64,000 nt of DNA, taken from NCBI GenBank assembly GCA_051294905.1, contig CM119371.1, forward strand, positions 26,662,001-26,726,000. The letters are read 5' to 3'. This stretch comes from Botryllus schlosseri (Eukaryota). Shown piece after piece: positions 2,745 through 64,000 of this stretch (position 1 is its first letter; each line of letters begins with the position of its first letter). A program made the position numbers and the translations under genes. A model generated the notes under the pieces. That model was not told the origin of the DNA and searched no databases. It saw only the letters and a program-made list of their open reading frames with translations.

Positions 2745-5699
2745 CAAACAGACAATTGATGGCCTAGTAATGAATGCAAACTTACCTTGATTTGGTTGGA
2801 AATGTTGCCCAAACAACTAGCAGATGCAGCTCCCACTGCTACTCCATAAGTTGGCACATCAGATGGGTCAGCATCTATCACAAAACAACTTATCAAGCAT
2901 GGTATAAATATGAATGGAAATGACATACTTACAGCCCAGTGTTGGTATCGTGGTGCGAGGAACTGGATAAAGCTCAAGCACAGTGCTTTCAGAAAAACCT
3001 TAATATAAAAGGAACTGGATATTGGTATGCGCATTCACACTCACATATACGGATAGATAGATAAATACCTATTTGATGGCTTGGCACATCACTGCTCGTT
3101 TGATTTTCTCTGTGTTCCAAAAGAATGGTGCTATCATTTGTTTCACAGCCTGCAGCTCACTCTGGTGGCACATTGCACAGCTATATAATAATTTTTACAT
3201 GGACTGATTATGCTACTATGTCGATACTATGACAGGGTAGCAAATCTGTGAAAATCAATGTTGAATTGACATATATCTCAAAACATTTGGATTACTGAAG
3301 CGTTAGCATGTACTGCACTTTGAATATTATTGGCATATATCACTTCACATCAATGGCCCCTTTAAGCTGCATACATGCGCAAATGCGCAGTGCTGACACG
3401 GTTTATGCACACAGAAAATCTGAAGTCATGACCCTTTTTTAGTCGTTACGCACTGTTTTCCGAGGGTCTGCGTAGTGCAGTGGTTCCCAACCTGTGGTAC
3501 GCGTACCACTAGTGGTACGCGAAGGTCTGCCAGATGGTACGCGAGCAGATTCTGCTTTTTTCGGTCGAATGGAGTTATTATTCCAGGTGGTGGTGATTTT
3601 AAGTTTTTTGTTGTTATTTCATTATGTTGTTCTTCTTGCGACTGGTGGTGAAAAAACAATTCCACGCATTCCATCAACCCTGGCTGATATTGCCAAGTTC
3701 AGGGCTCGGCAACCTTACGCATGCAGATTGCCAAAATGACAAAATATTACCAACTCGCGTGCCAAACATTTTTAATTTTGTCATATTTTCGTTTCAAGCA
3801 AGGAATCTCACCAACCGCTTAATTTCAGCTGGCAAGTACGGCATCAGTTACGCCAGTGAGTCTTAAAGTAGCCTATTGGTCGCAAAGGGAATAAATTTTG
3901 GTCGCTCCCGCACTACATGTAATATGCTTAATATACGTAATATATGAATCATTTATTTTTAGTCGCGCTGTGATCAATAGCCTATTCTGTGGTTGCTTTG
4001 ATCGTTTCCAAGTCCGCTGTATTCGGTTCCATATAGCCAATAAATGACAGGCACATAAATGTTGTTACGATGATATGGCCTGATGATGAAAAATGTGCCC
4101 AACCCTGTATCGTACATGTCGGTTTGATGTCACATTAGGGTTGGTCTGGCACTAGATTTGTCTGCAAAGCACGAAAGGTTGCGGTAAAGCGGTCAAGGTC
4201 GTTGCTCCAGATATATTGGTATCGATAAGACGTATCAGACGAAACTAAAAGAATATTTCCTTTCGTGATACGAACACGATTCCAAATTCGAAGTTCGACA
4301 CCGGACTCATTATTATCTTCGGCGGACCTCATTTGATACGTGGGGACCAAGCTGGGGCGAATTTACCATACGGCGCATGGGCAGTGTACACATCAATGTC
4401 GAACGTTTTGACCGGAATGTAGCGGTTATTTTATTCATTAGCGCCCCCATTCATTTTGACAGCGCACTAACCGCACGGAGTCGAATGGTCGCATGTTTCC
4501 CAGAAACGTTATGTCCAGGTCATGTCTCCTAGCGTGAAAATGCTCAGCGCCGAAATGCCGGTTCATATAGCATACTATAGTCGTGCTCCCGCAGGCTGCA
4601 CTTAAGCGTTCGACCGTTTTCATACGACATTATAAATTGCCATTCTTTCATAACTGCTAATACGGGTGGACTCATTTCTGCACATTATGCAAATTTAAAA
4701 AATATACTAAAGAAATCTGGTCCCAGTAAATCACGCAAAGCGCGGAAAATTTTGCTAGATAAATAAAATCTGCCAAAAAGACTCTATTTAGTGTTGATTT
4801 GCGAAATAATTTGGGGTCGCAGTAGTATAGTTGGTATCGTTTGTTACCGCCCCTCAGGCTATTTAGAATGTAAACACTCTCATAATATAATTAACGTCGG
4901 ACTATGGCCGGTCCATGCATCCGAGAAATAAATAACATTCATTATACGTTAGATGATACTTTCCTTAGATAATATAGTATGTGTATTTAGGACTAATATT
5001 CTAATATGTGTATTTAGGACTAATGCGACTACTTCGAAAACGCGTACTGATCTGTTTTTGGGAATATGAATTCTCGCTTATTCTTATGTGAATTTAGAAC
5101 TTTGTATTTTCGCGGATCAATAATTAATTAATGTTCATTTATAAACGCGTAACAGAAATCACGCAAAAGTCGATATTACTTTGTGATGATTTTGATGTTG
5201 TTCCATACCGATTGGGAAGATAGCACACTCAATTTCGTAACCAACTACATAATCCCTAGTTACGTAGTCAGACGCATAACGGCATTTACGCAAAATCGGT
5301 ATTGCTTAGCGATAATTTTGATCACTATGTTTTATCGCTCGCCGCCAGACTATTGCCGTTTGTATTTATGAACAAATTTCGAAAACTATGATGTCTACGC
5401 AAGACTATATTCGCAAGATATTCTATTATGTGTATTTAGGACTGTGTATTTTCGCGGATAGTATGAGCTCTCAGATAACACTCATCCACATTGAACTATA
5501 GGCGTGGTTATTTGATGATGTATTAAAATTCTACGCACATTTCGCGCGATCAACATAATATTAATACCTAGTAACGATTCAACTTCATGACATTTTCAGT
5601 ATTAAACAGAAATATAGACCTAGAATACTAACTTTTATTCATTAACGTAGTAAAACGCATAACAGAATTCACGCAAAAGTCGATCGGTATTTGCAATAA

Positions 5700-6060
5700 A
5701 GCCTAAAAATTAGAGTCGCATCTTTTCGCAATTTATGCAGCTATTCGCGTAGACTTTGCCGCATTTGCTGTATCTGAAGTAGAATTTCAGCGTCGTTATT
5801 CGCTATAAGCCGGGAAATGCACCTTCGCGCAATTTATATAGCCAAACGCATTAACTTTTCTGCATCTGAAGTAGAATTTCAGCGTCGTTATTTGTTATAA
5901 GCCGAGAAATGTACCTTCGCGCAATTTTTACAGGCAGTCTCACCCACTTTGCTGCGTCTGAAGTAGAATTTCAGCGTCGTTGTTTGCTATAAGCCGGGAA
6001 ATTAGAGTCGCTGCTTCGCGCCATTTTACAGCCAGTCTCACACACTTTGCTGCATCTGAG
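5700..6060. repeat. ~92-98-bp tandem repeat, ~3.5-4 units (mirror at ~23693-24053)
   Basis: TCTGAAGTAGAATTTCAGCGTCGTT recurs at 5773, 5865 and 5957, with a partial copy at 6055. Confidence 0.9.
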
Positions 6061-7140
6061 CTTCATACTAATACATGCATAATTTTTGCATGACGAGAAT
6101 ACGGGTAATACGGTCAATAAACGCCGGAGGCGAGTCATTTAAACCTTGTTGCTAGATAATACCGCTTTCGGCTACAACAAAGTTGCCCTGCAACAAAAAA
6201 TAGAAGCCCTAATGATCATGCAGAGGAAAGTTCAATTATACATCGAATTATTCGAATAGACTATCTACATTGTATAGGTATGAAGTGAAATAGAACGGAG
6301 TTTACGCAAAAGCTGCTATTGATCATAGACCAAGCTTGCTTTCAGAGCTGGAAATTAAATGCACATGAAAATTTAACTAGGTTTCTCCCACACGCATCAA
6401 ATGTAGGCCTACTCAAGTGTTTATGAGGTGGCGAATAGTTCGAAGGTTGTTGGCATGCAAGGACGTCACATAGAATTGTGGAGTTTTCTGTAAACTATAA
6501 TCCAGTGATCTATTTTCAATCACTATACTTTTAATAATCTAAAGTAAGTAGCCTACTTGAATGTCATTAAAGAAAGCAGATTTGTATGAAAACTCGTTAA
6601 ATAGAAGTAAAAGTAGCCTAGAAACATGACTACTTACTGAAAAATCGTTACGTAGAAGTGGGGTTAGTCTACGAACATAACCACTTACTTACTTTGAAAT
6701 CTCTACTTGTACTTGTATTCGTACTTTACCTTTACACGTCGTTTTTTGTATAATGGATACTAATTTTATTAAAAATTAATAAAGTGCGAAAAATTACATT
6801 TTATCCCGGAACGTAGCAGGAAAAATCGTATAAATTTTGTAAAGTAGATGGAAAACTACACTATTCCGATGCAGTAAAGACTCTTACACTCTGGATTTTG
6901 TGCAGTATATACTAATTTTCCATTGCGGAGTATTCCATAAACGTTAATCCAGTGATCCTCCTTCTATTTTCAATCACGATCCGCTTATTATTCTAGGCTT
7001 CGAACCCCACACCCAGTACGTTTTACGGGGATTATTATTTTTGGAATAAATATAGCGTATCGAGACTTCATGAAACTTACTTGGAAATAGTTATTTCTAC
7101 CCTAATTTAATAGATTTCTCAGATATCGTAGCAACGGAAC

Positions 7141-7193
7141 TGGCTTGAGCGAGCGGTTAAGGCGTTGGACTTGAGTTTCAATGAACAAGTGTT
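7141..7193 (+). pseudogene. 5' part of a tRNA-Leu-like sequence (D arm, anticodon arm reading TGA, long variable arm); mirror at 22560-22612
   Basis: GCGAGCGGTTAAGGCGTTGGACTTGAGTTTCAATGAACAAGTGTT resembles the eukaryotic tRNA-Leu(TAA) pattern GCCGAGTGGTTAAGGCGTTGGACTTAAGATCCAAT. Confidence 0.7.
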
Positions 7194-7199
7194 ATAAGT

Positions 7200-7853
7200 T
7201 ACTCATGTTTACAACACAACCTAAACGCAAAGTGCACGAATTTCCATATTGATCAAATACCACAAACTTTGCTGGCTTTCAGAGTTAGTAACTAAGCGCG
7301 TAACAGAATTTACCTAAAAAAGTCAGTACTCCAAAATTTTTGTAAAGTATAGCTTTTTGGCGTTGGATTTAAGTTCCAATGAACAAGTGTTCACATATAG
7401 GTTCGAATCCCACACCCACTACGTTTTACGAGAATTAATATTTTTGGATTCAAATTTAGCGTATTGAGTACTTTTTCTGCCTTTTTCAGCGCATTAGAGA
7501 CGTTTACACTATGGATTTCGTGAGCTTTACTTGAGTTTTATAAATTAACGTAAAAGTAGTCATTTCCGAGTAAGTAAAACGTTCGTATTGTAGGTTCATT
7601 TCTGCTTAATACTATAATTACCATGGAGTTGAAGCAGTCCAATATCAAAAACACCCGAAAGTATTTGTTGCATATAGCTAAAAACCTAATTGAGTACTCT
7701 GAAGAAGTACAAGTTGCACAGTTTGTGGTATTTCTATGACATCGAAATTTAGCTGACCAGAACTTATACTTGAGTACTTCGAAATGTACAAGTACTTTAC
7801 CTTCACACGACGTTTCTGTAAAATGAATACTGATTTTATTAAAAAATAAAAAA
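7200..7853 (+). repeat. ~650-bp internal direct repeat, copy 1 (copy 2 at ~13352-13993; both mirrored in the right arm)
   Basis: Near-identical from TACTCA(T/C)GTTTACAACACAAC to TTTTATTAAAAAATAAAAAA. Confidence 0.92.
7359..7420 (+). pseudogene. 3' two-thirds of a tRNA-Leu(TAA)-like sequence; mirror at 22333-22394
   Basis: Anticodon stem-loop TTGGA-TTTAAGT-TCCAA, variable stem TGAAC-AAGT-GTTCA, and B-box GGTTCGAATCC. Confidence 0.75.
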
Positions 7854-8629
7854 GCACGAAAAATTACATTTTATCCCAAACCATCAGAATACTAAAGTAG
7901 CTTATCACGTATATGGACCTAATACTAAAGTGTTTATGATTTCCGTTCGCTTCAACTTCATGACATTTTCAGTATTAAACAGAATTATAGGCCTAGAATG
8001 CTAACTTTCTTCGTAAATTGGTACTTCTGCCTTAATTTAACGGATTTATCTGAGATCATTGCTTTACTTAATCTCTCCAAAATGTGCATTATACTAGTAC
8101 GTCACCATGTTTGTATGACATCAAAATTTACGTACTTTTCGCTTACCTTATGTTAATAGTGTTCCTCGTCTATCTACACTGTTAAAAAAATACCAGTAAA
8201 TTTACTGCTCAAATAGCAGGCAGCAGTTTTACTGCAATTTGTAAATGTAATTACTGCTTCTAGAAAGTCAATCAAATTACGGTGTTACAGCAGTAAGATT
8301 TATTACTTGTTTGCTAGTAAATTTACTGCAATAGCAGTAAGATCTATTACTGGTTTGCTAGTAAATTTACTGCCTATTGTAAAACTAAAAACTGCTTCCA
8401 GAAGGTAAATGAAATTACGGCTAATAGCAGTAGGATTAATACTGTTTCCTAGTAAATTTACTGCCAATTTGTAAAACTAAATACGACTCTTTGGCGCAAT
8501 ACGGAATCACGGCATATATGTTGCCTGATTCGCTGGTAAATCCACAGACAATTTCCTCGACCCCAGACCTGGCCACGAGCCCACACTAATCATCAATTGC
8601 AGCGTCGAAGCATTTATTGATGTATTCAT

Positions 8630-11600
8630 GGAGCTTTTTTCAGCAACTTTGCAAACTTGATCACTTTAGGGTAAACGTCAGTTTGTCTTCTTTTAGATGA
8701 CTTTTGAGCCTTGCTCTGCTATCCCAGCAAAGTACCTGTAAATGAAATAGATATTACTAACAAGGAAATAGAATCAAAGATTGCCAGCTGTGAGTAATGG
8801 TGTATTCTAGCACAGGGGTGGCCAAGCTTTTCAGCCTATGGGCCGCATAAGATTTACGAACCATTGCGCAGGCCACGTCAATATTGATGACCATTCAGTA
8901 GTCCTCCAATGAAGAGCGAACCAGATGAGGTAACGGTGAAAACGACACTAATATTACAGCGCATCAAAATCGATAACAATTGTGTTATTAAAATACGGAG
9001 TACATAGTCGCGGCAAGCGCGAAAATTTCTCAAGGTAATGAATGAATTCGGACTTCGGTCAATAATAATGGCACTTGAAATATTGTGGGTCATCTCCATA
9101 TCGCGCTGGGCTCATTTGGCTTGGCAATGACTGGATTGATTATATTGATATTTTAGTCATCAACATCCTGTATTTCACAGTCAGGCTGATCAATTTTTGG
9201 TTGGCCTTGCAAGTTCACAATAAATTACCTGGGTAATATATTTTTTGAAATTATAACTAACTTCGAGAATTACTTCGTGCGCCACTCAAATTCTTCTCGC
9301 GGGCCACGGTTTGGCCATCCCTGATTTACTTTGACCAGGGTTGGCCAATTTAGAAAATTACACCGTGGCTGGTCACTCTCACGGGGCCCTCGGGTTGGCG
9401 AAGCACTACGAAGCACTTCTACACAAGCATTTTAGTGGTTATGGGATGCATCAATTAGGTAATTGATTACTTCTACTCGAGTAGCATCAGAGACTGCTTG
9501 GGACAAGAATTAAAGATAGAAGTTGTCGTCTTGTAAAGCATGGAAGGTAGGCATAGTCGAGATCAGCACTGTTTCGGGGAGTCTAGGTGCACAATTATTA
9601 TCAAATAAATTCAGTATAATCTGTTTCAATTGTGGTCTCACTCTCGCTCATAGCTCACCTTTGCATGAACCTTTGCTGTTGCTTCTTCTGGGTACTCCAT
9701 ATTGAAGACATAGAAGTAGACGAAGAAATAAGCTACTGCAGAGTAGAAGGATTCCGTCGAATAAATGATCGATTTTTCGGCGGTTACCGGAAACTTTTCT
9801 GTAGAGTGGACAGTCGAGCCTAAAAATGCACGGGTATTATAGTCACATCAGCATCCTAATAAATTATCCAATTTAGAGGTGTTTATGGTAAACCAGTGTT
9901 GGAATGACTCGAGTCATGACTTGACTCGAGTCACCTTTTTCGTACGATTCGACTTGACTCGTGTCAATTTGCTAAAATGACTTGACGTATCAGAAAGTTG
10001 AACTGACTCGTGACTCGGGGCCTAATTCACGAGTCAATTTCAAGTCATAAAGTTATCAAATAAAGTTGCCAAATTCTCAGTGACTTAAATTGTGAGTTTT
10101 GTTCGATGCATTCCGTCGGACGGACTGGTAGCGCAGTTACACTTTCGAATGATCGTACCGTTTCAAGACTCCATTTAATAACTCGACTACTTGGTTTGAT
10201 AATAATGAGTGCAGGGCAAAATAGGATTAACACTGCAAGTACCCCAGCGGCATGTAGTGAAGTGCGTTTCCGGGCGACAGTGACGTCATCGATAAGGAAA
10301 AATTATGACGTCGCATGACTCTCGTAAAAAAATAAAAGTCGGCGCCTATGATGGTAAATAATTCCTCTTTTATATGAGTGCTCACTACTCATGTAGATTT
10401 GGCCAACTGGCTACACCAACTTTCGACGCTAATTCCTAAAATTATATAACGCGTGTCGCTAACGTGTTTATGTAATCATAGGCATAAAATGTCACTTCCA
10501 AAACTATTGCATTGCAATCTAAACAATGACTTACCGAATGCGATCAAGAACGAATGGTATGGAGCCTCCTCCACAAAGTCTTCTTGAACACTTTCCTGAA
10601 AACAGATATGGATTATTAGTTATTAAAGCACACCTTCATCGACATCACTTGGACTTGTTCGATTGCTGGAGCAAGGCACATTGATTCGACTACTCGAATC
10701 TTAATCAAGTATTAATTCTAATGATTTGAGTCGAGTAGAAGACATTTTTTCGTGTACTGAAAGTATACGCGTCCCTCCACTGAAAGTTGATTTATCAACG
10801 AGAATTATAGTTTCGATACTAATTTATATTTTTTGAAGCTTTGAAACATTGATTGTACCATATATCAAAGTGTACGATACATAGCCTATAGTACAAAAGC
10901 TAACAAGGTTACTGGACGTTGAACATTTCCGAAGTCCTGAACAACATTTTAAGATTTGGACTAGGAATGTCCTTTCATGAATTGAGGAATGGACAAGAAG
11001 GACAAGAAGGCACACAAGGGGAATTAACGCACAAATCCTGGTATAGGCTAACATCTAAAAAAAGGCTTTTTGCTTACCATTCGCCAGAATATAACTCCAG
11101 CATGCCAATAGACTAGTGGCCGTATATGATTGTGATTGAAGCATTTTGCATATTGTCGAAACTCTTTCCATCGTGGTGACAACCTTCAGTGACTTCACGT
11201 TTTTCAACGCCCTGCAAAGAGAACGGGCACCTTTTATAAAATGTAAGATGACAGTGAAGTGAAGAGAGTTGTCTGCAAACATTCACAACTCAATATTGAA
11301 ACGCAACTAATTTTGAGGAGCTTTTCTCGGCGACAGACTATGTAATCACAATCGAGATATATAGTGACTAAGCATTATCTATATCAAAATATAGGGATAG
11401 CTATTTATACTTACTTTTGAATGAGGCACCAGTTACCGTCCATCATGCGAATGGTGTGTTCCTTTCCATCAACCCTACCAGTAAGCTTGGAATAATGCGC
11501 AAGCGCAACCATATACTGATCTTCAAACAGGATGAGCCACTTAATCCTGATTGCGGATACCGACGCACGTTCACTGATTATTGATCGCTCCAGCGGATAA

Positions 11601-12200
11601 GTTGTTGTCATCAATGATCTCGCTCTTCCAGTGTCTCGTACGGTTTTCCTGATTTCTTCGAGCAGCCATTGCTGGTCTATTTCTAATTCTTTCAGATTAT
11701 TAGTATAGGGGGCGACCAATTAATGCAGCCGTATTCTTGCACATCATTCTTTTTTATTTTATTAACACTTGAATTGTTCATATTCTGGTCCTTCGATTTA
11801 TTCTTTCGCCGTTGATTTTCCACTCTATTATATAGTTGGCTCGCAAGTGAATCGTGACGACTGCCGATACAAACACCACAAGTGATATAATAATTCCCCG
11901 ATTCATAGCTCCGTTTACACTTCACAGCATTGGTATCAAGCACCCGGTCGTCAGCAATTGAACTATTCAACGCATTTTCAGTACCATAGTAAGCAGAACC
12001 ATATTTTCATGGTGTTCAATAACGGTATGATTTCGGCTAACGTGGCTCGAAAACGACGAAACCACAGCATACCTTTAAGAACCGCTGCAAAATGCGCGGA
12101 CATTAAACTATAATTCCAGATCGAATATGGCCTTTCAAGTGACAAAACAGCAGATGTTGACGCCTTGACGGGAGTTTCATTCCACAAATTCTCACAGGGC
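8630..12200 (-). pseudogene. Spliced, decayed accessory gene of an animal EnSpm-type element (SAMD3-like uncharacterised family)
   Basis: Peptides IGSRHDSLASQLYNRVENQRR...EYGCINWSP and TYPLERSII...KWLILF...HYSKLTG. Exons 10535-10595 (ESVQEDFVEEAPYHSFLIAF), 9659-9819 (AYFFVYFYVFNMEYPEEA...FMQR) and ~8640-8735 (YFAGI..GSK...PKV) have canonical AG/GT edges. Family assignment is from recalled motifs only. Confidence 0.65.
8813..9323. mobile_element. hAT-type MITE nested in the EnSpm element; related copy at ~58323-58700
   Basis: TIRs CAGGGGTGGCCAA / TTGGCCATCCCTG. Internal sequence (AAGAGCGAACC, GCATCAAAATCGATA, CGCTGGGCTCATTTGGC) is shared with 58323 onward. Confidence 0.7.
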
Positions 12201-13510
12201 ATCTCAAATCCGCTTCCGTTTGTTTGTGGAATACCACCAAATATGCCGCGCCACCAGCACGAGTTTCGTTTTAATCCCAGGCTAACAAACGCCCAATCCT
12301 AAATTCGCGGTGCGGTACTTGAGCTGCGTGAACTAAAACTTCTCCGTTTTTCAATCAATCCTGGCGAATTCTCCAATCGTCACGAGCAACCTTCCATTTA
12401 GTTCCTTATTCTGGGAAAGAAACCCTTCTGTCACACGCGCAACCTTTCGCTGAAAACAACCGCTGTTTCCACTCTGGTGATTCCTAACCTCAATCTTCAT
12501 CGCTAATCCCCAGGGATTTTGAACAAAAGGACTATCGCTGGCTTCCCGCCTGAATAGTTCCTGTTGTTATTAAAGTTGAAGATGACGATAAGCCTTAAAA
12601 TCGATGTCCCACATTACATTCTATTCTGAAGCCTACTTGGTGTTGGAACGGCTGGCCTACTGAAATTATGTCAATATGAACCTATTGATTGTTGCGATAT
12701 TGAATTCCTATTTCTATTAAATGCCTATTTTCAATATGCTGATTTTCAGCAATCTCTGACACGCCCTACTAAAACCGTACTGGCAAGATCGTAGCACTCT
12801 ACGCGTTTGCGCAACCCTACTGTATATGGAATTACAATTTTATCAAAATCTTTCTTTCTTGACCACAAGAAATGCCCGCCCATACATGTGACAAATGAAA
12901 TAATTTACGGATTGTTTCGGTGAATCGAGTTACGATCTCATGTCCGTAATTGAATACAGCGTAAAGAACAGTAAATTTCCTTACGTCCACGTATGTAAAC
13001 TCGTTTACTGCTCAAAAAGGTGTAAATTTACGGATTTTTCTAACAGTGTACTTTATAAGATTCAGTGTAGAAATTCAGTAGAAATGTAAACACGCTTGAA
13101 TATGACTAAAACTCGCATAAGCATTACACTATGATTGATTATTTCAATTAGCAAGCATAATAGATCATCACCTAATGAATGCAAGGACGAGTTCGCAAGT
13201 GGGAAATAAGTCAGATCGCTCGAAATAATAGTCCCGAGTTGCGTAAAGCTAATGTTCTCCCCGTAGCTGAGATCAAGGTTAGCAATTTCGCCTATGGGAA
13301 TGAGGTATTAGAAAATACCAATTCGAGAGGTTCTCTACTAGATAGTGCCTATACTCACGTTTACAACACAACCTAAACGCAAAGCGCACGAATTTCCATA
13401 TTGATCAAATACCACAAACTTTGCTGGCTTTCAGAGTTAGTAACTAAGCGCGTAACAGAATTTACCTAAAAAAGTCAGTACTCCAAAATTTTTGTAAAGT
13501 ATAGCTTTTT

Positions 13511-13570
13511 GGCGTTGGATTTAAGTTCCAATGAACAAGTGTTCACGTAGGTTCGAATCCCACACCCACT
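13511..13570 (+). pseudogene. tRNA-Leu(TAA)-like fragment within direct-repeat copy 2; mirror at 21057-21116
   Basis: GGCGTTGGATTTAAGTTCCAATGAACAAGTGTTCACGTAGGTTCGAATCCCACACCCACT. Confidence 0.75.
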
Positions 13571-13994
13571 ACGTTTTACGAGAATTAATATTTTTAGATT
13601 CAAATTTAGCGTATTGAGTACTTTTTCAGCGCATTAGAGACGTTTACACTATGGATTTCGTGAGCTTTACTTGAGTTTTATAAATTAACGTAAAAGTAGT
13701 CATTTCCGAGTAAGTAAAACGTTCGTATTGTAGGTTCATTTCTGCTTAATACTATAATTACCATGGAGTTGAAGCAGTCCAATATCAAAAACACCCGAAA
13801 GTATTTGTTGCATATAGCTAAAAACCTAATTGAGTACTCTGAAGAAGTACAAGTTGCACAGTTTGTGGTATTTCTATGACATCGAAATTTAGCTGACCAG
13901 AACTTATACTTGAGTACTTCGAAATGTACAAGTACTTTACCTTCACACGACGTTTCTGTAAAATGAATACTGATTTTATTAAAAAATAAAAAAT

Positions 13995-14227
13995 ACCTAG
14001 AGCAATTATAAAACGCATCTTCGAAACTTTTGGTCTAGTTCATCCGCTTGCATTTCGAAACGAACCATCACGACAAGACTCTAACCCCCCACATTGAAAA
14101 GGAATAAGGCATCGGGTTTGCAGAAAAAAGAAGAAGCAAAAGATGCTAAGTAAAGTGGCTACCAGGGTTTTGTAATTACTCGAGTCAACCAAAAGTTTCG
14201 AAGATGCGTTTTATAATTGCTCTAGGT
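13995..14227. repeat. Perfect 40-bp local inverted repeat (13995-14034 / 14188-14227)
   Basis: ACCTAGAGCAATTATAAAACGCATCTTCGAAACTTTTGGT and its reverse complement. Confidence 0.95.
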
Positions 14228-15589
14228 GTGAAATAGACATCGCACTCTTGCGGGGAAACAACACGAATTCAGTCTTCACACCGCAGAAACACAGCCGCTT
14301 GGTTAACATCACAAAACCACAATTGAACTCAAGATTGCCATACACGGAATCGCTGTTAACGATGTCTGACTGCGGCGTTTCGACGAGTAACGAATTCTCG
14401 TATTTAGTATTGATTGTGACACATACTCAAAACAGCGACAGTTTTCACAACCCGGTACATACATTGAACCAACTGATGTAAGGTGAAACATTACGTTCAC
14501 ACCAAAAAAAAAGTTTGCAGGGTATGACCACCACCAACATATAGAGTAGTGAGTGAGTAATTAAACTACATACCCCGATTTTACTATATTCCGAGATCCG
14601 GATCACGATTCAAGTCTACCTGAGAATCCGAACTACCCTGTGAAGTTGATATATCAAGTTGTGAACCGTGAAAGGGTTGTAATCTCGTTGAAATAGTGTG
14701 CGACACATTTTTTCACAAGTCGAATGCATGTCGGTTCATACTAAGACCATGTTACGGTCAAATATGTGTGTTTTTCTGTCTCCAAGTCAGCTACCCCCAC
14801 ATTGAATGTACAGAGTCGGTGCATGTATGAGACTTCAGAACATGAATTTGTAATCCATGATGCTTGTAGTGCCGGCCATGATGTTATCCATGATGTAATT
14901 AATGTCACACACCTCCTTTACGCGAATACTTGGTATCTATGAACAATCGTGAAGTATACTGGATGTGTAATGTCTTGTTATTTTCATGGAAACACGGGGG
15001 TGTAACATGTTTGAATATTGTTCATTGGTTTGTCGATTCAGAGTTGATATCCGGATCCGGTTAATACTTTCTCGGGTTTCCGATTTCAAACTGAACGGCG
15101 GGATATGTATTGACCAATAAAGAGTGACACAATATAGTAAACATGTGTGAGAAAACTCACAAGTAACCCGGATTTGTTAGCGCGACGGGGACATAAATTC
15201 AACCATTATCCGTGTACCAAGCAGTTACCAAAGTCATGGAGGTTGCTAATTTCAACATATTGACTCTGTAGGAGGCTAAAGCACGAACCGGGACACACAC
15301 AGACACACACACCAGGACACACAATATACGTCGATTTCCAAAGCATACATTTCGATATACAAGAGCATATTGTTATTTCATGTGGTTAACTGTTGATATA
15401 GATGCGATGCGATCGACGCGGGTATACTCTGAAACCGGTTGTCCGTTTATATGAGAAAAGATGCTGTGAAGGGCTTTAAAAAGCGGCAATTGAGCATAGT
15501 TGTGTCGAGTTACCGAATGATTTTTTCCTTACATCAAAACAACTAGAATGTGTAACTACATTAAACACGTATCTAAATGAGCTCCAGGG

Positions 15590-16620
15590 CATTGTGATTA
15601 TGCAGCATACCAAATTGCATCACACATTTACATTTCATGATGGAATAACTTTAAAACTAATTCAGTTCTATAGCAACTTTTGCCTACATCTGTTTCGCTA
15701 GCGTGTACAACTGTACATGTACATATACATAGTCAGCTTTAATACCAGAATTACCATGCTAATATGTGAATCCTCACCTTGAAACTTGGTACGTAGTTGT
15801 AGGACATTGTGATTATGCAGCATACGAAATTTCCTCACGCATTTCATAATGGAACAACTTTAAAACTAACGCGGCTCCTACATCGACATTTTGCGTACAT
15901 CTGTTTTGTGGGGGCGTATAGTACGTACCCATACATAGCCAACTTTAATAACGGAATTACCATGCTTAACATTGAATCCCAACTCTAAACTTGATACGTA
16001 GTTGTAGGACATTATGGCAATGCACCATGCTAGATTTCATCATCCCACATCTAATGATGGAGCACCTTTGAAACTATCGCAGTCGAATACCGACTTTTAC
16101 GCATATCTGCTTTTCGTGAACACAGCATATACCCATACATAGTCAATTTTAATAACAGAATTAGTATGCTAAACATCAAATTCTCACCTTGAACGTTGGT
16201 ACACAGTTGTAGGACATAATAAGAATGAACCATACCAAATTTCGTCACACATTTCATGATGTAACACCTTCAAAACCAACGCAGTTCTATACAGACTTTT
16301 GGCTAAGTCTGTTTTTCCGTAGCGTAGCACGTACCTATGCATAGTCAACTTTAATAACGGAATTACCATGTTAATAATCGGCTCCCAACCTTGAAACTCG
16401 CTACACCGTTGTAAGACATTATGACAATGCACCATGTCAAATTTTGTTACGCATTTCATGATTGAACAACTTTAAAACTAATCCAGTTCCATGCCGACTT
16501 TTGCGGGGGGGCGTAGCACGTACCTATGCATACTCAACTTTAATAACGGAATTACCGAGCTTAACATTGAATGCGCAACTTGAAGATCGGTTCACGGGTG
16601 TAGGACATTATGACAATGGA
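15590..16620. repeat. ~205-bp diverged tandem repeat, ~5 units (mirror ~18007-19037; also ~61080-61625 and ~63010-63680)
   Basis: Anchor GTA(G/A)GACAT at 15799, 16004, 16209, 16411 and 16600. Shared CAACTTTAATAACGGAATTACCATG and CCAAATTT motifs. Confidence 0.9.
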
Positions 16621-17293
16621 ACATACCACTGCGCTAACTTTCAGAATTGTTAAGTATAGTACTCGCACTTTGTGAGAATACCCAAGGAGGTTTTTTTGCC
16701 TACATGCACCAAATACTCTCAAGTCCTTATGATATTGGAGTACATCAACTTCATGATAGCTAGAGTATTGAACAGAAATGGACCTAGAGTACTAACGTTT
16801 TACTTACTCGGAAATGACTACTTCTACCTTATTTTAAAGGATACCTCGTTCGAAGCGAAATTTATGTGGTTTTGGATAATATCCAAGATGTAGGCTCACT
16901 TTGAAGGGTACTTCCTAAAACTCAAATATTGCGCAAAAGTACAATTAGGGATCTAAAAGTAACTAATATAGATGGTTATTTCCGTAGATAACTTACCCTC
17001 TACTCAAGAGGTTTTTCAGGTGGAACTACCTACTTTTAGGACTGTTTATGTCAAAGTAGTTTGAGCTTACGTTTATATCACCTTGACAAGTGACATTATC
17101 AGACATGAAAATGATATTATCACGTAATACCAGAAGTTAACACACGTCAATGTGTTTCGGAATTCACGAGAAATTGCTTACTAAGAGAAGTATATTCTTG
17201 TGTACACAATAGCGGAGAGAATATTTAAAATGTAGTAAGCAGGCCGATGGGTATTCATTGAGTTGTATAAGCATAAAAAACATTCCCGCGCGC

Positions 17294-17332
17294 GTCTTAG
17301 GATTAGGTGGTAGGGTTAGGCAGGGTTTAGGA
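17294..17332 (+). other. 39-nt palindrome spacer (hairpin loop) of degenerate telomere-like repeats
   Basis: GTCTTAGGATTAGGTGGTAGGGTTAGGCAGGGTTTAGGA, between CCCGCGCGC and GCGCGCGGG. Confidence 0.9.
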
Positions 17333-20300
17333 GCGCGCGGGAATGTTTTTTATGCTTATACAACTCAATGAATACCCATCGGCCTGCTTACTACATTTTA
17401 AATATTCTCTCCGCTATTGTGTACACAAGAATATACTTCTCTTAGTAAGCAATTTCTCGTGAATTCCGAAACACATTGACGTGTGTTAACTTCTGGTATT
17501 ACGTGATAATATCATTTTCATGTCTGATAATGTCACTTGTCAAGGTGATATAAACGTAAGCTCAAACTACTTTGACATAAACAGTCCTAAAAGTAGGTAG
17601 TTCCACCTGAAAAACCTCTTGAGTAGAGGGTAAGTTATCTACGGAAATAACCATCTATATTAGTTACTTTTAGATCCCTAATTGTACTTTTGCGCAATAT
17701 TTGAGTTTTAGGAAGTACCCTTCAAAGTGAGCCTACATCTTGGATATTATCCAAAACCACATAAATTTCGCTTCGAACGAGGTATCCTTTAAAATAAGGT
17801 AGAAGTAGTCATTTCCGAGTAAGTAAAACGTTAGTACTCTAGGTCCATTTCTGTTCAATACTCTAGCTATCATGAAGTTGATGTACTCCAATATCATAAG
17901 GACTTGAGAGTATTTGGTGCATGTAGGCAAAAAAACCTCCTTGGGTATTCTCACAAAGTGCGAGTACTATACTTAACAATTCTGAAAGTTAGCGCAGTGG
18001 TATGTTCCATTGTCATAATGTCCTACACCCGTGAACCGATCTTCAAGTTGCGCATTCAATGTTAAGCTCGGTAATTCCGTTATTAAAGTTGAGTATGCAT
18101 AGGTACGTGCTACGCCCCCCCCGCAAAAGTCGGCATGGAACTGGATTAGTTTTAAAGTTGTTCAATCATGAAATGCGTAACAAAATTTGACATGGTGCAT
18201 TGTCATAATGTCTTACAACGGTGTAGCGAGTTTCAAGGTTGGGAGCCGATTATTAACATGGTAATTCCGTTATTAAAGTTGACTATGCATAGGCACGTGC
18301 TACGCTACGGAAAAACAGACTTAGCCAAAAGTCTGTATAGAACTGCGTTGGTTTTGAAGGTGTTACATCATGAAATGTGTGACGAAATTTGGTATGGTTC
18401 ATTCTTATTATGTCCTACAACTGTGTACCAACGTTCAAGGTGAGAATTTGATGTTTAGCATACTAATTCTGTTATTAAAATTGACTATGTATGGGTATAT
18501 GCTGTGTTCACGAAAAGCAGATATGTGTAAAAGTCGGTATTCGACTGCGATAGTTTCAAAGGTGCTCCATCATTAGATGTGGGATGATGAAATCTAGCAT
18601 GGTGCATTGCCATAATGTCCTACAACTACGTATCAAGTTTAGAGTTGGGATTCAATGTTAAGCATGGTAATTCCGTTATTAAAGTTGGCTATGTATGGGT
18701 ACGTACTATACGCCCCCACAAAACAGATGTACGCAAAATGTCGATGTAGGAGCCGCGTTAGTTTTAAAGTTGTTCCATTATGAAATGCGTGAGGAAATTT
18801 CGTATGCTGCATAATCACAATGTCCTACAACTACGTACCAAGTTTCAAGGTGAGGATTCACATATTAGCATGGTAATTCTGGTATTAAAGCTGACTATGT
18901 ATATGTACATGTACAGTTGTACACGCTAGCGAAACAGATGTAGGCAAAAGTTGCTATAGAACTGAATTAGTTTTAAAGTTATTCCATCATGAAATGTAAA
19001 TGTGTGATGCAATTTGGTATGCTGCATAATCACAATGCCCTGGAGCTCATTTAGATACGTGTTTAATGTAGTTACACATTCTAGTTGTTTTGATGTAAGG
19101 AAAAAATCATTCGGTAACTCGACACAACTATGCTCAATTGCCGCTTTTTAAAGCCCTTCACAGCATCTTTTCTCATATAAACGGACAACCGGTTTCAGAG
19201 TATACCCGCGTCGATCGCATCGCATCTATATCAACAGTTAACCACATGAAATAACAATATGCTCTTGTATATCGAAATGTATGCTTTGGAAATCGACGTA
19301 TATTGTGTGTCCTGGTGTGTGTGTCTGTGTGTGTCCCGGTTCGTGCTTTAGCCTCCTACAGAGTCAATATGTTGAAATTAGCAACCTCCATGACTTTGGT
19401 AACTGCTTGGTACACGGATAATGGTTGAATTTATGTCCCCGTCGCGCTAACAAATCCGGGTTACTTGTGAGTTTTCTCACACATGTTTACTATATTGTGT
19501 CACTCTTTATTGGTCAATACATATCCCGCCGTTCAGTTTGAAATCGGAAACCCGAGAAAGTATTAACCGGATCCGGATATCAACTCTGAATCGACAAACC
19601 AATGAACAATATTCAAACATGTTACACCCCCGTTTTTCCATGAAAATAACAAGACATTACACATCCAGTATACTTCACGATTGTTCATAGATACCAAGTA
19701 TTCGCGTAAAGGAGGTGTGTGACATTAATTACATCATGGATAACATCATGGCCGGCACTACAAGCATCATGGATTACAAATTCATGTTCTGAAGTCTCAT
19801 ACATGCACCGACTCTGTACATTCAATGTGGGGGTAGCTGACTTGGAGACAGAAAAACACACATATTTGACCGTAACATGGTCTTAGTATGAACCGACATG
19901 CATTCGACTTGTGAAAAAATGTGTCGCACACTATTTCAACGAGATTACAACCCTTTCACGGTTCACAACTTGATATATCAACTTCACAGGGTAGTTCGGA
20001 TTCTCAGGTAGACTTGAATCGTGATCCGGATCTCGGAATATAGTAAAATCGGGGTATGTAGTTTAATTACTCACTCACTACTCTATATGTTGGTGGTGGT
20101 CATACCCTGCAAACTTTTTTTTTGGTGTGAACGTAATGTTTCACCTTACATCAGTTGGTTCAATGTATGTACCGGGTTGTGAAAACTGTCGCTGTTTTGA
20201 GTATGTGTCACAATCAATACTAAATACGAGAATTCGTTACTCGTCGAAACGCCGCAGTCAGACATCGTTAACAGCGATTCCGTGTATGGCAATCTTGAGT

Positions 20301-23300
20301 TCAATTGCGGTTTTGTGATGTTAACCAAGCGGCTGTGTTTCTGCGGTGTGAAGACTGAATTCGTGTTGTTTCCCCGCAAGAGTGCGATGTCTATTTCACA
20401 CCTAGAGCAATTATAAAACGCATCTTCGAAACTTTTGGTTGACTCGAGTAATTACAAAACCCTGGTAGCCACTTTACTTAGCATCTTTTGCTTCTTCTTT
20501 TTTCTGCAAACCCGATGCCTTATTCCTTTTCAATGTGGGGGGTTAGAGTCTTGTCGTGATGGTTCGTTTCGAAATGCAAGCGGATGAACTAGACCAAAAG
20601 TTTCGAAGATGCGTTTTATAATTGCTCTAGGTATTTTTTATTTTTTAATAAAATCAGTATTCATTTTACAGAAACGTCGTGTGAAGGTAAAGTACTTGTA
20701 CATTTCGAAGTACTCAAGTATAAGTTCTGGTCAGCTAAATTTCGATGTCATAGAAATACCACAAACTGTGCAACTTGTACTTCTTCAGAGTACTCAATTA
20801 GGTTTTTAGCTATATGCAACAAATACTTTCGGGTGTTTTTGATATTGGACTGCTTCAACTCCATGGTAATTATAGTATTAAGCAGAAATGAACCTACAAT
20901 ACGAACGTTTTACTTACTCGGAAATGACTACTTTTACGTTAATTTATAAAACTCAAGTAAAGCTCACGAAATCCATAGTGTAAACGTCTCTAATGCGCTG
21001 AAAAAGTACTCAATACGCTAAATTTGAATCTAAAAATATTAATTCTCGTAAAACGTAGTGGGTGTGGCATTCGAACCTACGTGAACACTTGTTCATTGGA
21101 ACTTAAATCCAACGCCAAAAAGCTATACTTTACAAAAATTTTGGAGTACTGACTTTTTTAGGTAAATTCTGTTACGCGCTTAGTTACTAACTCTGAAAGC
21201 CAGCAAAGTTTGTGGTATTTGATCAATATGGAAATTCGTGCGCTTTGCGTTTAGGTTGTGTTGTAAACGTGAGTATAGGCACTATCTAGTAGAGAACCTC
21301 TCGAATTGGTATTTTCTAATACCTCATTCCCATAGGCGAAATTGCTAACCTTGATCTCAGCTACGGGGAGAACATTAGCTTTACGCAACTCGGGACTATT
21401 ATTTCGAGCGATCTGACTTATTTCCCACTTGCGAACTCGTCCTTGCATTCATTAGGTGATGATCTATTATGCTTGCTAATTGAAATAATCAATCATAGTG
21501 TAATGCTTATGCGAGTTTTAGTCATATTCAAGCGTGTTTACATTTCTACTGAATTTCTACACTGAATCTTATAAAGTAGATAGACGAGGAACACTATTAA
21601 CATAAGGTAAGCGAAAAGTACGTAAATTTTGATGTCATACAAACATGGTGACGTACTAGTATAATGCACATTTTGGAGAGATTAAGTAAAGCAATGATCT
21701 CAGATAAATCCGTTAAATTAAGGCAGAAGTACCAATTTACGAAGAAAGTTAGCATTCTAGGCCTATAATTCTGTTTAATACTGAAAATGTCATGAAGTTG
21801 AAGCGAACGGAAATCATAAACACTTTAGTATTAGGTCCATATACGTGATAAGCTACTTTAGTATTCTGATGGTTTGGGATAAAATGTAATTTTTCGTGCT
21901 TTTTTATTTTTTAATAAAATCAGTATTCATTTTACAGAAACGTCGTGTGAAGGTAAAGTACTTGTACATTTCGAAGTACTCAAGTATAAGTTCTGGTCAG
22001 CTAAATTTCGATGTCATAGAAATACCACAAACTGTGCAACTTGTACTTCTTCAGAGTACTCAATTAGGTTTTTAGCTATATGCAACAAATACTTTCGGGT
22101 GTTTTTGATATTGGACTGCTTCAACTCCATGGTAATTATAGTATTAAGCAGAAATGAACCTACAATACGATCGTTTTACTTACTCGGAAATGACTACTTT
22201 TACGTTAATTTATAAAACTCAAGTAAAGCTCACGAAATCCATAGTGTAAACGTCTCTAATGCGCTGAAAAAGGCAGAAAAAGTACTCAATACGCTAAATT
22301 TGAATCCAAAAATATTAATTCTCGTAAAACGTAGTGGGTGTGGGATTCGAACCTATATGTGAACACTTGTTCATTGGAACTTAAATCCAACGCCAAAAAG
22401 CTATACTTTACAAAAATTTTGGAGTACTGACTTTTTTAGGTAAATTCTGTTACGCGCTTAGTTACTAACTCTGAAAGCCAGCAAAGTTTGTGGTATTGGA
22501 TCAATATGGAAATTCGTGCACTTTGCGTTTAGGTTGCGTTGTAAACATGAGTAACTTATAACACTTGTTCATTGAAACTCAAGTCCAACGCCTTAACCGC
22601 TCGCTCAAGCCAGTTCCGTTGCTACGATATCTGAGAAATCTATTAAATTAGGGTAGAAATAACTATTTCCAAGTAAGTTTCATGAAGTCTCGATACGCTA
22701 TATTTATTCCAAAAATAATAATCCCCGTAAAACGTACTGGGTGTGGGGTTCGAAGCCTAGAATAATAAGCGGATCGTGATTGAAAATAGAAGGAGGATCA
22801 CTGGATTAACGTTTATGGAATACTCCGCAATGTAAAATTAGTATATACTGCACAAAATCCAGAGTGTAAGAGTCTTTACTGCATCGGAATAGTGTAGTTT
22901 TCCATCTACTTTACAAAATTTATACGATTTTTCCTGCTACGTTCCGGGATAAAATGTAATTTTTCGCACTTTATTAATTTTTAATAAAATTAGTATCCAT
23001 TATACAAAAAACGACGTGTAAAGGTAAAGTACGAATACAAGTACAAGTAGAGATTTCAAAGTAAGTAAGTGGTTATGTTCGTAGACTAACCCCACTTCTA
23101 CGTAACGATTTTTCAGTAAGTAGTCATGTTTCTAGGCTACTTTTACTTCTATTTAACGAGTTTTCATACAAATCTGCTTTCTTTAATGACATTCAAGTAG
23201 GCTACTTACTTTAGATTATTAAAAGTATAGTGATTGAAAATAGATCACTGGATTATAGTTTACAGAAAACTCCACAATTCTATGTGACGTCCTTGCATGC

Positions 23301-26300
23301 CAACAACCTTCGAACTATTCGCCACCTCATAAACACTTGAGTAGGCCTACATTTGATGCGTGTGGGAGAAACCTAGTTAAATTTTCATGTGCATTTAATT
23401 TCCAGCTCTGAAAGCAAGCTTGGTCTATGATCAATAGCAGCTTTTGCGTAAACTCCGTTCTATTTCACTTCATACCTATACAATGTAGATAGTCTATTCG
23501 AATAATTCGATGTATAATTGAACTTTCCTCTGCATGATCATTAGGGCTTCTATTTTTTGTTGCAGGGCAACTTTGTTGTAGCCGAAAGCGGTATTATCTA
23601 GCAACAAGGTTTAAATGACTCGCCTCCGGCGTTTATTGACCGTATTACCCGTATTCTCGTCATGCAAAAATTATGCATGTATTAGTATGAAGCTCAGATG
23701 CAGCAAAGTGTGTGAGACTGGCTGTAAAATGGCGCGAAGCAGCGACTCTAATTTCCCGGCTTATAGCAAACAACGACGCTGAAATTCTACTTCAGACGCA
23801 GCAAAGTGGGTGAGACTGCCTGTAAAAATTGCGCGAAGGTACATTTCTCGGCTTATAACAAATAACGACGCTGAAATTCTACTTCAGATGCAGAAAAGTT
23901 AATGCGTTTGGCTATATAAATTGCGCGAAGGTGCATTTCCCGGCTTATAGCGAATAACGACGCTGAAATTCTACTTCAGATACAGCAAATGCGGCAAAGT
24001 CTACGCGAATAGCTGCATAAATTGCGAAAAGATGCGACTCTAATTTTTAGGCTTTATTGCAAATACCGATCGACTTTTGCGTGAATTCTGTTATGCGTTT
24101 TACTACGTTAATGAATAAAAGTTAGTATTCTAGGTCTATATTTCTGTTTAATACTGAAAATGTCATGAAGTTGAATCGTTACTAGGTATTAATATTATGT
24201 TGATCGCGCGAAATGTGCGTAGAATTTTAATACATCATCAAATAACCACGCCTATAGTTCAATGTGGATGAGTGTTATCTGAGAGCTCATACTATCCGCG
24301 AAAATACACAGTCCTAAATACACATAATAGAATATCTTGCGAATATAGTCTTGCGTAGACATCATAGTTTTCGAAATTTGTTCATAAATACAAACGGCAA
24401 TAGTCTGGCGGCGAGCGATAAAACATAGTGATCAAAATTATCGCTAAGCAATACCGATTTTGCGTAAATGCCGTTATGCGTCTGACTACGTAACTAGGGA
24501 TTATGTAGTTGGTTACGAAATTGAGTGTGCTATCTTCCCAATCGGTATGGAACAACATCAAAATCATCACAAAGTAATATCGACTTTTGCGTGATTTCTG
24601 TTACGCGTTTATAAATGAACATTAATTAATTATTGATCCGCGAAAATACAAAGTTCTAAATTCACATAAGAATAAGCGAGAATTCATATTCCCAAAAACA
24701 GATCAGTACGCGTTTTCGAAGTAGTCGCATTAGTCCTAAATACACATATTAGAATATTAGTCCTAAATACACATACTATATTATCTAAGGAAAGTATCAT
24801 CTAACGTATAATGAATGTTATTTATTTCTCGGATGCATGGACCGGCCATAGTCCGACGTTAATTATATTATGAGAGTGTTTACATTCTAAATAGCCTGAG
24901 GGGCGGTAACAAACGATACCAACTATACTACTGGTCGCCTATACGAGCTTTGTACATTTAAAAAACTTTTGTTTCACTTCTTGCAATACATGGTTATAAT
25001 ATCTTGTTTCCGTCAGATCATTTGGCGAGCCATGAAAAATCATCTCGCGTGCCACAAATGGCACGCTTGCCGGAGTTGGCCGACCCCTGGCCTATAGTTT
25101 AATAGAATTTGTTATTACACCTCGCACAGGACAAATACGTGATTATGACGTCATAAATGGCAGAAAAATTTTGACCGGCTTCGGAACGCGTAACTTATGT
25201 AGGTGGTACGCGAGCACTGCGTAAAACCTCGAAATGGTACGTGGGTGGAAAAAGGTTGGGAACCACTGGCGTAGTGAGTTCTTGAGTGTACGCACAGACT
25301 CGTCAAAAATTAGAGGGAACATTGCTTCACATCTATAGCAATTCACTAACAACTTCATGCAAAGTCATGTCATTTTTCTTTCCGAAACTTCTGGATCTTT
25401 ATCCAGTATGCTGAAATTCGGTGCGCGTGCAGTGAACGGAATATCAATACAATGCTGGTTGAATAGACACATATTGATCAAAGTTCCATGTAGTCGGCAC
25501 TATTCTAGAAAGTAGCAGTTAAACATATTTATGACAATGCTCATAGGGGTGGAGCGAAAATGGATATTGAGGGGAACCCTGCAATCAATCACAGTTGCGT
25601 GCAAGTGGTGCAACATTGATTAGGCTCAACAAAATGAGCATGATACATATTTTCCATTTTCTGGTGATGCGTCGTGTGTTCACTTTTTGGCTATAACCAC
25701 AGCAAAGCCAAACTGTCAAAACGTCAACGTGAATAAGTTAAAAGACGTAACCAGTCGAGAAAACTATAATGATGAGTTGACGTAGCATGTAGGCTATCAA
25801 TAAAGGATCTGTTGATCTGCCGCAACCTAAAATCTCATCTTGGGGCTTCTTCGATACATGCACTATATTAACTGATGTTCCCCATGACCACTGATCAGCA
25901 TCATTACCCGTAGCGGATTCTTATCGCTGACCTTTCTTTGCCAAAATGGGCGGGATTCGCAAGTCCAACGCTAGGCACACCTTTACGCCTTACCCCAAAT
26001 ATCACTTCCCGTGTCTCGTAACCATAGTCATATCATATTAGTAACCGAATCGATTGGAGCCAGCGAACGCGGGTTATGGTGGTCATGGGGAACATTGCTT
26101 GATACTATATGGTGCGGTTATGGAAGAAGTGCTGATGTGTCCTGTGTGCCTCAGGGCTCTGGCTATCCATTTGAAATGAAATCCGTTCAGTATACGAAGA
26201 CCCCTGCAGCATTCCACTGTAAATCCCACTATAACGGTATATGATACCAACTTGTCACGTTTGTGGTATAAACATTGTTCCAAACTGCCTGACATCAATA

Positions 26301-46570: not shown

Positions 46571-46909
46571 TGAACACAATATTGGTTTCATGAGGTAAGA
46601 TGGCATCATCGTGACGTGATCATGTCTTGAAATCGATGTTCATGTTTTTACAGTATAATAGTGATTTGTTACAATTATTTGATTATACACAATGCATACA
46701 CTGCATTGGTTTTAGTCGCATTCCTGAGCATGATCTCAAATTAGAATCTACCCACGAATATTTTATGTATTCTATAAACATATAATACAAGTAGTGGTGG
46801 TCAAAGTAGTCGTCGTCGATACTCAAGTAGAAGTATTCAAGTACATTTCTACTCACGTAGTATTAGCGATATACAAGTAAGTAAAAAATAAGTACTCCAA
46901 GCCAAGAAT

Positions 46910-58800: not shown

Positions 58801-59204
58801 TTGGGCGTATTAGGAATTTTCAGGAGGGGGTGAGTAGTGTTATTATCGACCTTATAGACCGCCCCTCAGGCTATTTAGAATGTAAACACTCTCATAATAT
58901 AATTTGCGTCGGACTATGCCCGGTTTATGATGTCATCACAGAGGAATTAGGCGACTGCAATGTTTTGTGAATTTCAATACCGATTTTCCATGTGTATTTA
59001 GCAATATGTATTGAATACCTATGCGATTTTGAGCGCTGCGACTTGATAATATCAATCCCTACGCTTCTGATGTATGATTTTTTGTGATAAGGGCCTTGAT
59101 AACATTCAGAGTCTGCAACGATTGTTTGGATATACATTATAGCAATTCCCCACTAAACTATAGGCGGTTATATTACTCTATTGGTCAGAGATAACTCATC
59201 CGTT

Positions 59205-63500: not shown

Positions 63501-64000
63501 TGTCAAATTTTGTTACGCATTTCATGATTGAACAACTTTGAAACTAATCCAGTTCCATGCCGACTTTTACGGGGGCGTAGCACGTACCTATGCATACTCA
63601 ACTTTAATAACGGAATTACCGAGCTTAACATTGAATGCGCAACTTGAAGATTGGTTCACAGGTGTAGGACATTATGACAATGGAACATACCACTGCGCTA
63701 ACTTTCAGAATTGTTAAGTATAGTACTCGCACTTTGTGAGAATACCCATGTAGGTTTTTGCCTACATGCACCAAATACTATCAAGTCCTTATGATATTGG
63801 AGTACATCAACTTCATGATAGCTAGAGTATTGAACAGAAATAGACCTAGAGTACTAACGTTTTACTTACTCGGAAATGTCTACTTCTACCTTATTTTAAA
63901 GGATACCTCGTTCGAAGCGAAATTTATGTGGTTTTGGATAATATCCAATATGTAGGCTCACTTTGAAGGGTACTTCCTAAAACTCAAATATTGCGCAAAA

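Follow-up and report, generated by a model that had tools for sequence, protein, structure and literature searches.

The DNA analysed here, a window of 64,000 nucleotides (nt) from Botryllus schlosseri (GenBank assembly GCA_051294905.1, contig CM119371.1, positions 26,662,001 to 26,726,000 of the forward strand), contains a 20-kb palindrome (4821-24932) with Polinton/Maverick ends and a 6-bp target duplication, centred on a G-rich, telomere-like loop that is closed by a GC clamp. A common centre of this kind is found at about 280 loci of the genome, and arms as well as end types are swapped among them. On balance we favour the view that the element is a palindromic Polinton satellite that depends on a helper, and that loop and clamp would act as its snap-back module, in which a telomere-derived core probably binds a host protein.

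The centre of the palindrome is a conserved junction

The centre is made up of the following parts:

17294..17332, + strand: loop, a 39-nt asymmetric, C-poor, G-rich spacer, the sole unpaired portion at the axis
17285..17293, + strand: left half of the GC clamp, CCCGCGCGC
17333..17341, + strand: right half of the GC clamp, GCGCGCGGG
17311..17319, + strand: core, TAGGGTTAG, identical to the human POT1 minimal site and the best-kept segment of the loop

The core sequence is cited as the minimal site of human POT1 (PMC8009405). An earlier note on this DNA had described a GC clamp closing the stem and an asymmetric loop with seven GG/GGG runs on one strand, and both are present at 17285-17341; two of the seven runs in the 39-nt loop are GGG. 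Its wording has to be corrected in two details, since the loop starts with GTC ahead of the first TTAGGA and an intact TTAGGG hexamer is absent. When the clamp is intact, loops are 28-46 nt long, and longer apparent loops belong to copies with a mutated clamp. Cytosine is rare on one strand of the loops (75 C in 1,334 bases, 32 haplotypes). A symmetric clamp of two main forms is kept in 54/64 contexts, and one-sided clamp changes occur almost only in single copies.

A pattern search of the genome (495 Mb) detected the exact clamp at 261 loci and a variant clamp at 31 loci, and the reversed patterns used as controls for both searches gave 0 matches. At least 13 clamp loci are false duplicates across scaffold gaps (for example G000 C10:21047916 and 12 others, L565-L576), and removing the gap duplicates leaves about 280 true centres. 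As had been proposed in the earlier note, the observations support a centre that is dedicated and conserved as opposed to a chance fold-back: the same clamp with a related spacer was found in 30/30 loci that were opened, in the 50 loci listed of the 261 and in 31/31 variant-clamp loci. A 20-mer from the loop has 210 matches in the genome, which lie at palindrome centres in 21/21 cases on C1 and in 11/11 cases on C2. Arms may be unrelated from 25-60 nt outside the clamp onwards while the centre is kept. Palindromes with ends of the F2 type have a homologous centre, and the loop is common to F4-type and F2-type satellites. Several short derivatives are without the centre. Among metagenome contigs, 0/121 loci with the clamp pattern had both long arms and the telomere-like loop, and the 120 matches of the end pattern in viral contigs are taken as chance.

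A sequencing or assembly artefact arising from fold-back chimeric reads is largely refuted, and we give it next to no credence. Gaps in the assembly and spurious duplications are indeed present at these palindromes, but target duplications, mismatches between the arms, an insertion in only one arm and a window free of N argue against such an origin. In addition, contigs of other studies carry loop variants, and one of them runs across the loop with a change of strand, which shows that the present assembly did not create the structure.

Relationship to Polinton/Maverick elements

The arms and ends of the window element are located as follows:

4821..17293, + strand: left arm, 7.6 kb plus a one-sided insertion
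17333..24932, - strand: right arm, with 9 substitutions and 1 one-base gap relative to the left arm over 7.6 kb
4821..4826, + strand: left Polinton/Maverick end motif (AGT)2 (motif according to PMC8097293)
24927..24932, - strand: right end motif (ACT)2
4815..4820, + strand: left copy of the 6-bp target site duplication
24933..24938, + strand: right copy of the 6-bp target site duplication
4827..4850, + strand: copy-specific 24-nt mosaic 'barcode', end bases 7-30
24903..24926, - strand: the same barcode at the right end

The window element is almost certainly a non-autonomous Polinton/Maverick derivative, a kind that the earlier note left unnamed while it was right about the conserved, dedicated centre. 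Ends of the form (AGT)2//(ACT)2 and a 6-bp target duplication are signatures of Mavericks/Polintons, for which a size of 10-20 kb is given (PMC8097293), and both end motifs are present here. The 6-bp duplication is perfect in 28 of 36 end pairs and has at most one mismatch in 33 of the 36. A Tc1-like CAGT end with a 4-bp duplication was also considered and was dropped in favour of AGTAGT with 6 bp. The window element does not have the protein-primed polymerase and integrase of its own that mark an autonomous member. No polymerase, integrase, ATPase or capsid gene was found in it, ATG-started frames of at least 150 amino acids (aa) are absent from both window copies, and the sole frame found in the first element, of 102 aa, lies inside the one-sided insertion. 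An Rfam search of the element gave no match.

The element differs from the published Polintons in that it consists entirely of its inverted repeats, with about 7.6 kb per arm compared to the 46-1,447 bp reported (PMC8097293). It is gene-less, it has a fixed telomere-like axis, and it carries a 24-nt hypervariable end segment that does not appear in those parts of the account in PMC8097293 on which we draw. A literature search that did not extend to the founding Polinton paper and Repbase, where palindromic non-autonomous Polintons may be described, found no account of hypervariable end bases in Polintons, of a telomere-like centre in them or of Polinton satellites that are palindromic throughout.

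Helper Polintons are present in the same genome. A polymerase query resulted in 125 matches from several families, many of them in open frames of 1,200-1,380 aa. The ATPase and integrase of the helpers were confirmed by Pfam, and the polymerase is supported by atlas neighbours with DNA_pol_B_2 (DNA_pol_B_2 clusters at 0.97); capsid and protease were unconfirmed in the Pfam and atlas checks. The lack of matches in a genome-wide search with Pfam DNA_pol_B_2 is a false negative, since the ATPase search led to the 125 polymerase matches. The satellites have their ends in common with the intact autonomous families F4 and F2 of this genome. Family F4 has its subterminal sequence and its barcode pool in common with the loop-bearing satellites, and the window subtype retains only about 30 terminal bases of the F4-type end (97 end matches). 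From the ends, the duplications and the young arms we infer that helper enzymes mobilise the satellites in trans. None of the six autonomous copies examined had a match to the loop. No RNA dataset is among the listed carriers. In one run of unrecorded kind, the summed contig depth over the F4 subterminal region was very high, about 85,000 (L134:7254-7330, run X6).

Arm symmetry and the proposed replication

The two arms of a copy resemble each other more than they resemble the arms of other copies. This comparison covers 18 of 40 copies, those that align over 600 nt beside the centre. Over 558 columns, it gave 1.8 differences when the two arms of one copy were compared and 12.5 when different copies were. 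There are 37 alleles that are private to a single copy and present on both its arms, and one-arm differences seen in two copies on the same side amounted to 0/33. These observations, together with the insertion in the window copy that stayed in one arm, fit a symmetry that is renewed in each lineage, which would be consistent with re-copying at mobilisation; slow gene conversion in place is the rival source of equal arms. The loop 20-mer is found 98 times on the plus strand and 112 times on the minus strand. The earlier note had expected both orientations of the loop from hairpin replication, but this split is uninformative and records insertion orientation only, because a reversed palindrome with identical ends is the same molecule.

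To our knowledge, the replication of Polintons/Mavericks in animals has not been directly demonstrated, and a single-stranded fold-back intermediate is a model. In the course of events that we propose, the enzymes of autonomous Polintons of the same genome would copy and insert the element. The protein-primed polymerase of the helper would begin synthesis at one or the other AGTAGT end, peeling off a strand, and this displaced strand, or a nascent strand freed just past the loop, might snap back at the GC clamp. Extension of the snapped-back end along the other arm would re-copy the arm, and the integrase would then insert the regenerated palindrome. The C-poor spacer of 28-46 nt, unable to pair with itself, would remain single-stranded at the tip of the intermediate and would reduce hairpin and cruciform breakage in the integrated state. 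For neither strand of the isolated window loop is a structure predicted (0 kcal/mol). Among 11 deleted or interrupted derivatives, four are broken within the clamp, in agreement with the proposed role of the centre. Large palindromes have been reported to be primed by short inverted repeats next to a break, and longer spacers to lessen fork stalling in eukaryotes (PMC7999016).

It might also be possible, though we consider it unlikely, that the centre is a passive scar. A single founding fold-back at a telomerase-healed or interstitial telomeric stretch would have generated a loop that has been inherited since because any spacer of at least about 30 nt stabilises the palindrome, and either gene conversion or repair of the folded strand would make the arms alike. 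The single origin of all short loops agrees with this explanation, and so do the unrelated centre that works in a family with F5-type ends, the multi-copy loop types without the exact core and the identity of TTAGGG as the host repeat. Against it stand a core that appears conserved far beyond the adjacent linker, a clamp and loop that outlast the wholesale replacement of arms and end types, and the loss of the canonical tandem TTAGGG. The clamp itself, symmetric in most contexts and with asymmetric changes nearly confined to single copies, is likewise not what such a scar would predict.

Telomere likeness of the loop

The telomere repeat of the host is TTAGGG, with (TTAGGG)n arrays at 5/11 of the chromosome ends fetched. 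The longest exact match of the window loop in telomere register is 10 nt, and the local alignment score of this loop against (TTAGGG)n was significant in post hoc tests with 2000 mononucleotide shuffles (p<0.001) and with dinucleotide shuffles (p 0.006). One TTAGGG hexamer is present in 2/61 loop contexts, and canonical tandem repeats are absent. The spacer is probably derived from the telomeric repeat.

In those 15 of 18 hand-picked lineages that parsed, the core diverges by 0.04 on average, the four nucleotides after it by 0.44 and the 3' block by 0.10. Because these lineages are related and the parse was motif-anchored, dropping 3/18, the figures are only suggestive of a core that is preferentially conserved over the adjacent linker. 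The exact TAGGGTTAG is present in 52/61 contexts and 26/32 haplotypes of a sample that is biased to relatives of the query. It was also found in 33 of the 50 loci listed of the 261 (counted by eye), in 27/31 variant-clamp loci and in 13/18 lineages. Binding by a host protein of the telomere type is the probable reason why the core is kept, and it would be helpful but not essential. Telomere mimicry by the loop, an idea of the earlier note, is plausible: the host repeat and the preferentially kept core are in line with it, whereas tandem canonical repeats are missing from the loop. A search for the POT1 family gave no match, and its control matched nothing either. A link to CryptonV elements, which were considered for similar telomere-like centres, was unsupported, since only a sentence on targeting of microsatellites was found.

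Several observations weigh against a snap-back module with a protein-binding core. The exact core is absent in 17 of the 50 listed exact-clamp loci, in 4/31 variant-clamp loci and in 5/18 lineages. One multi-copy type (10 of the 50 listed loci) has the core minus a T, and one copy has a 28-nt loop without the core. Several loop types are not significantly telomere-like when compared with dinucleotide shuffles (p 0.05-0.19), and the divergence figures overstate the independence of the lineages. Equal arms could also result from gene conversion in situ or from mismatch repair of a full-length fold-back, and an extrachromosomal or hairpin intermediate was not observed in the data, which consist of contigs only. 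Finally, F5-ended palindromes (2/2 opened) have a centre of about 975 bp that matches neither clamp nor loop. Different fold positions or unrelated spacers, which the earlier note regarded as evidence against a dedicated junction, are thus not seen within the loop-bearing family but do occur more widely, and because a second palindromic family has an unrelated centre, the loop is not generally required.

The G-runs of the loop suggested a G-quadruplex (G4) to the earlier note. As a switch, a two-tetrad G4 in the loop would stall the polymerase and trigger a change of template, which we regard as improbable, more so than a passive scar. At least four GG runs are present in 41/42 contexts and in all 18 lineages, and the best 25-nt window of the window loop has a G4Hunter score of 1.24 (own script), compared to a threshold of 1.2. 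However, four GGG runs were found in 0/42 contexts, the common loop types C, D and E score only 0.84-1.08, and with G4 enabled ViennaRNA left the isolated loop unstructured.

Less probable still is a resolution site, the other function that had been proposed for the loop. The mobile form would then be a half-length molecule with a covalently closed hairpin end that a resolvase of the protelomerase or Holliday-junction type cuts out of the palindrome and that has flip/flop isomers as in poxviruses. The axis is indeed fixed, and 4/11 deleted or interrupted derivatives break within the clamp. Yet the axis is a non-palindromic spacer of 28-46 nt, unlike a palindromic resolvase site (PMC13685816), and intact copies have two open Polinton ends. 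Double centres were considered as rolling-hairpin concatemers, but this is ruled out by a 100-N scaffold gap between the centres in 13/13 cases, hence concatemers are unsupported. No recombinase was found among the six open reading frames of helpers that were scanned. For loop and clamp the function as a snap-back module is the one we prefer.

A hypervariable segment at the element ends

End bases 7-30 vary between copies, yet they match at both ends of one copy. A total of 61 different 24-mers occur at 103 ends. Across 13 ends of autonomous F4 elements, bases 7-30 have an identity of 0.45 and bases 31-60 one of 0.96 (the search pattern itself fixed bases 31-40), and eight polymerase segments are 0.97 identical. 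The barcode is common to helper and satellites and is reshuffled between near-identical copies. In all seven comparisons between elements with 99% identity just downstream, 9-18 of the 24 barcode bases differ, and 15 differ between two sister satellites whose arms are 98.5-100% identical. Linkage along the barcode drops near the shuffled level within about 5 nt. In 2/12 autonomous copies the barcodes at the two ends are unlike each other despite perfect target duplications; in other elements the two barcodes are identical in 18/24 cases, have 1-3 base differences in five and 7 differences in one, which is without a matching duplication.

An array that could donate barcodes was not seen for the one module searched: 27 of its 29 matches are at element ends (22 with the exact end motif, 5 at altered ends), and otherwise there were only scattered 12-mer matches inside one helper and the window element. 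Strong covariation, as expected for base-pairing within the barcode, is absent. An independent run contained further barcodes as loose ends. Our guess is that the reshuffling might come about by template exchange of short primer-linked products among origins at initiation. The ends of F1, F2 and F5 show a narrower variation in this segment.

Further features of the window and related loci

Two further features concern the palindromic family in the window:

8177..13048, no strand assigned: insertion of 4.87 kb confined to the left arm (ends CACTG...CAGTG, duplication of 2 bp)
58833..64000, + strand: left arm of a second family member, with its own barcode and its own 6-bp duplication at 58827-58832

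The 8177-13048 insertion came after integration and was left unmirrored. It is non-coding, and its ends and 2-bp duplication resemble those of animal elements of what we take to be the EnSpm/CACTA group. The second member has its centre at G000:C1:26726345-26726410, about 375 bp past the end of the window, where the earlier note had predicted a further one. The arms contain tRNA-like sequence (59672-59755 and 7140-7420, with an ARAGORN call in the second copy), possibly a Pol III promoter or the remnant of a SINE. Outside the elements, a degenerate 42/85-bp tandem array of 1.5 kb with a strong G skew is located at 46905-48442.

Some satellites have an intact frame of the Bcl-2 family in both arms (L105:3222-3743, L108:3650-4201), and Bcl2 homologues are mentioned for adintoviruses (PMC8502044). 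The second palindromic family, with F5-type ends, is located at L129-L130 (G000:C11:2545717-2559756) and L478-L480; its centre of about 975 bp is unique, and it has a tandem repeat region of about 200 bp in common with the window element (about 71% identity). One loop-bearing satellite at L125-L130 (G000:C11:2510280-2563859) contains both an F5-ended palindrome and an autonomous F2 Polinton, and comparable nesting was found at C1:8322176 and C1:20425964. At L111:7780-9630, a fragment of a non-LTR retroelement with RNase H has taken the place of the first part of the right arm, with its boundary precisely at the clamp.

Comparison with known systems and significance

The yeast linear plasmid pGKL1 has hairpin and palindromic deletion derivatives, an example of a protein-primed replicon that keeps one end type twice. 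These derivatives are cytoplasmic and unintegrated and, unlike the satellites, not a genomic family of several hundred copies. The ribosomal DNA of Tetrahymena is a giant palindrome with a short non-palindromic centre. Giant palindromes primed by short inverted repeats in yeast and Chinese hamster ovary (CHO) cells likewise have a short inverted repeat and an asymmetric spacer at the axis (PMC7999016); in the family described here, however, the outer ends are transposon or virus origins and not telomeres, and the palindrome itself is mobile. The flip/flop hairpin telomeres of poxviruses (PMC8956199) and the ends made by protelomerases (PMC13685816) have an unpaired tip and are, when unfolded, palindromes with an asymmetric centre. 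In our case the loop is located inside an integrated element with two ends of the protein-primed type, and resolution, concatemers and a resolvase are unsupported.

Snapback and defective interfering genomes of adeno-associated virus (AAV) are self-complementary, helper-dependent and built from one parental end (bioRxiv 10.1101/2020.10.20.346957), and the satellites, too, are self-complementary and contain the end of the parent twice. The AAV snapbacks differ in that they vary in length and fold point and arise anew (bioRxiv 10.1101/2020.10.20.346957), whereas here one heritable, integrated centre outlives changes of arms and ends. The fold-back point is fixed at the approximately 280 loci instead of being variable in the parent sequence, and the loop was not found in the helper.

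A more general proposal, which we make tentatively and regard as doubtful in its full form, is that snap-back satellites of animal Polintons constitute a heritable class. Such satellites would replicate as hairpins capped by a single-stranded telomere mimic that recruits host telomere proteins, and their open ends, like those of the helper, would carry a 24-nt barcode that is recombined anew at nearly every mobilisation. Hundreds of self-symmetrising palindromic dependants with one turning point would be a natural record of a fold-back intermediate and would provide a short cis-element open to testing. The barcode shows that hardly any of the origin bases 7-30 has to be fixed and that linkage across them is lost through recombination over a distance of about 5 nt; it points to an undescribed process at initiation and offers a lineage tag for each insertion. 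If it is true that the core binds telomere proteins, a mobile element would borrow the protection of chromosome ends for the tip of its hairpin.

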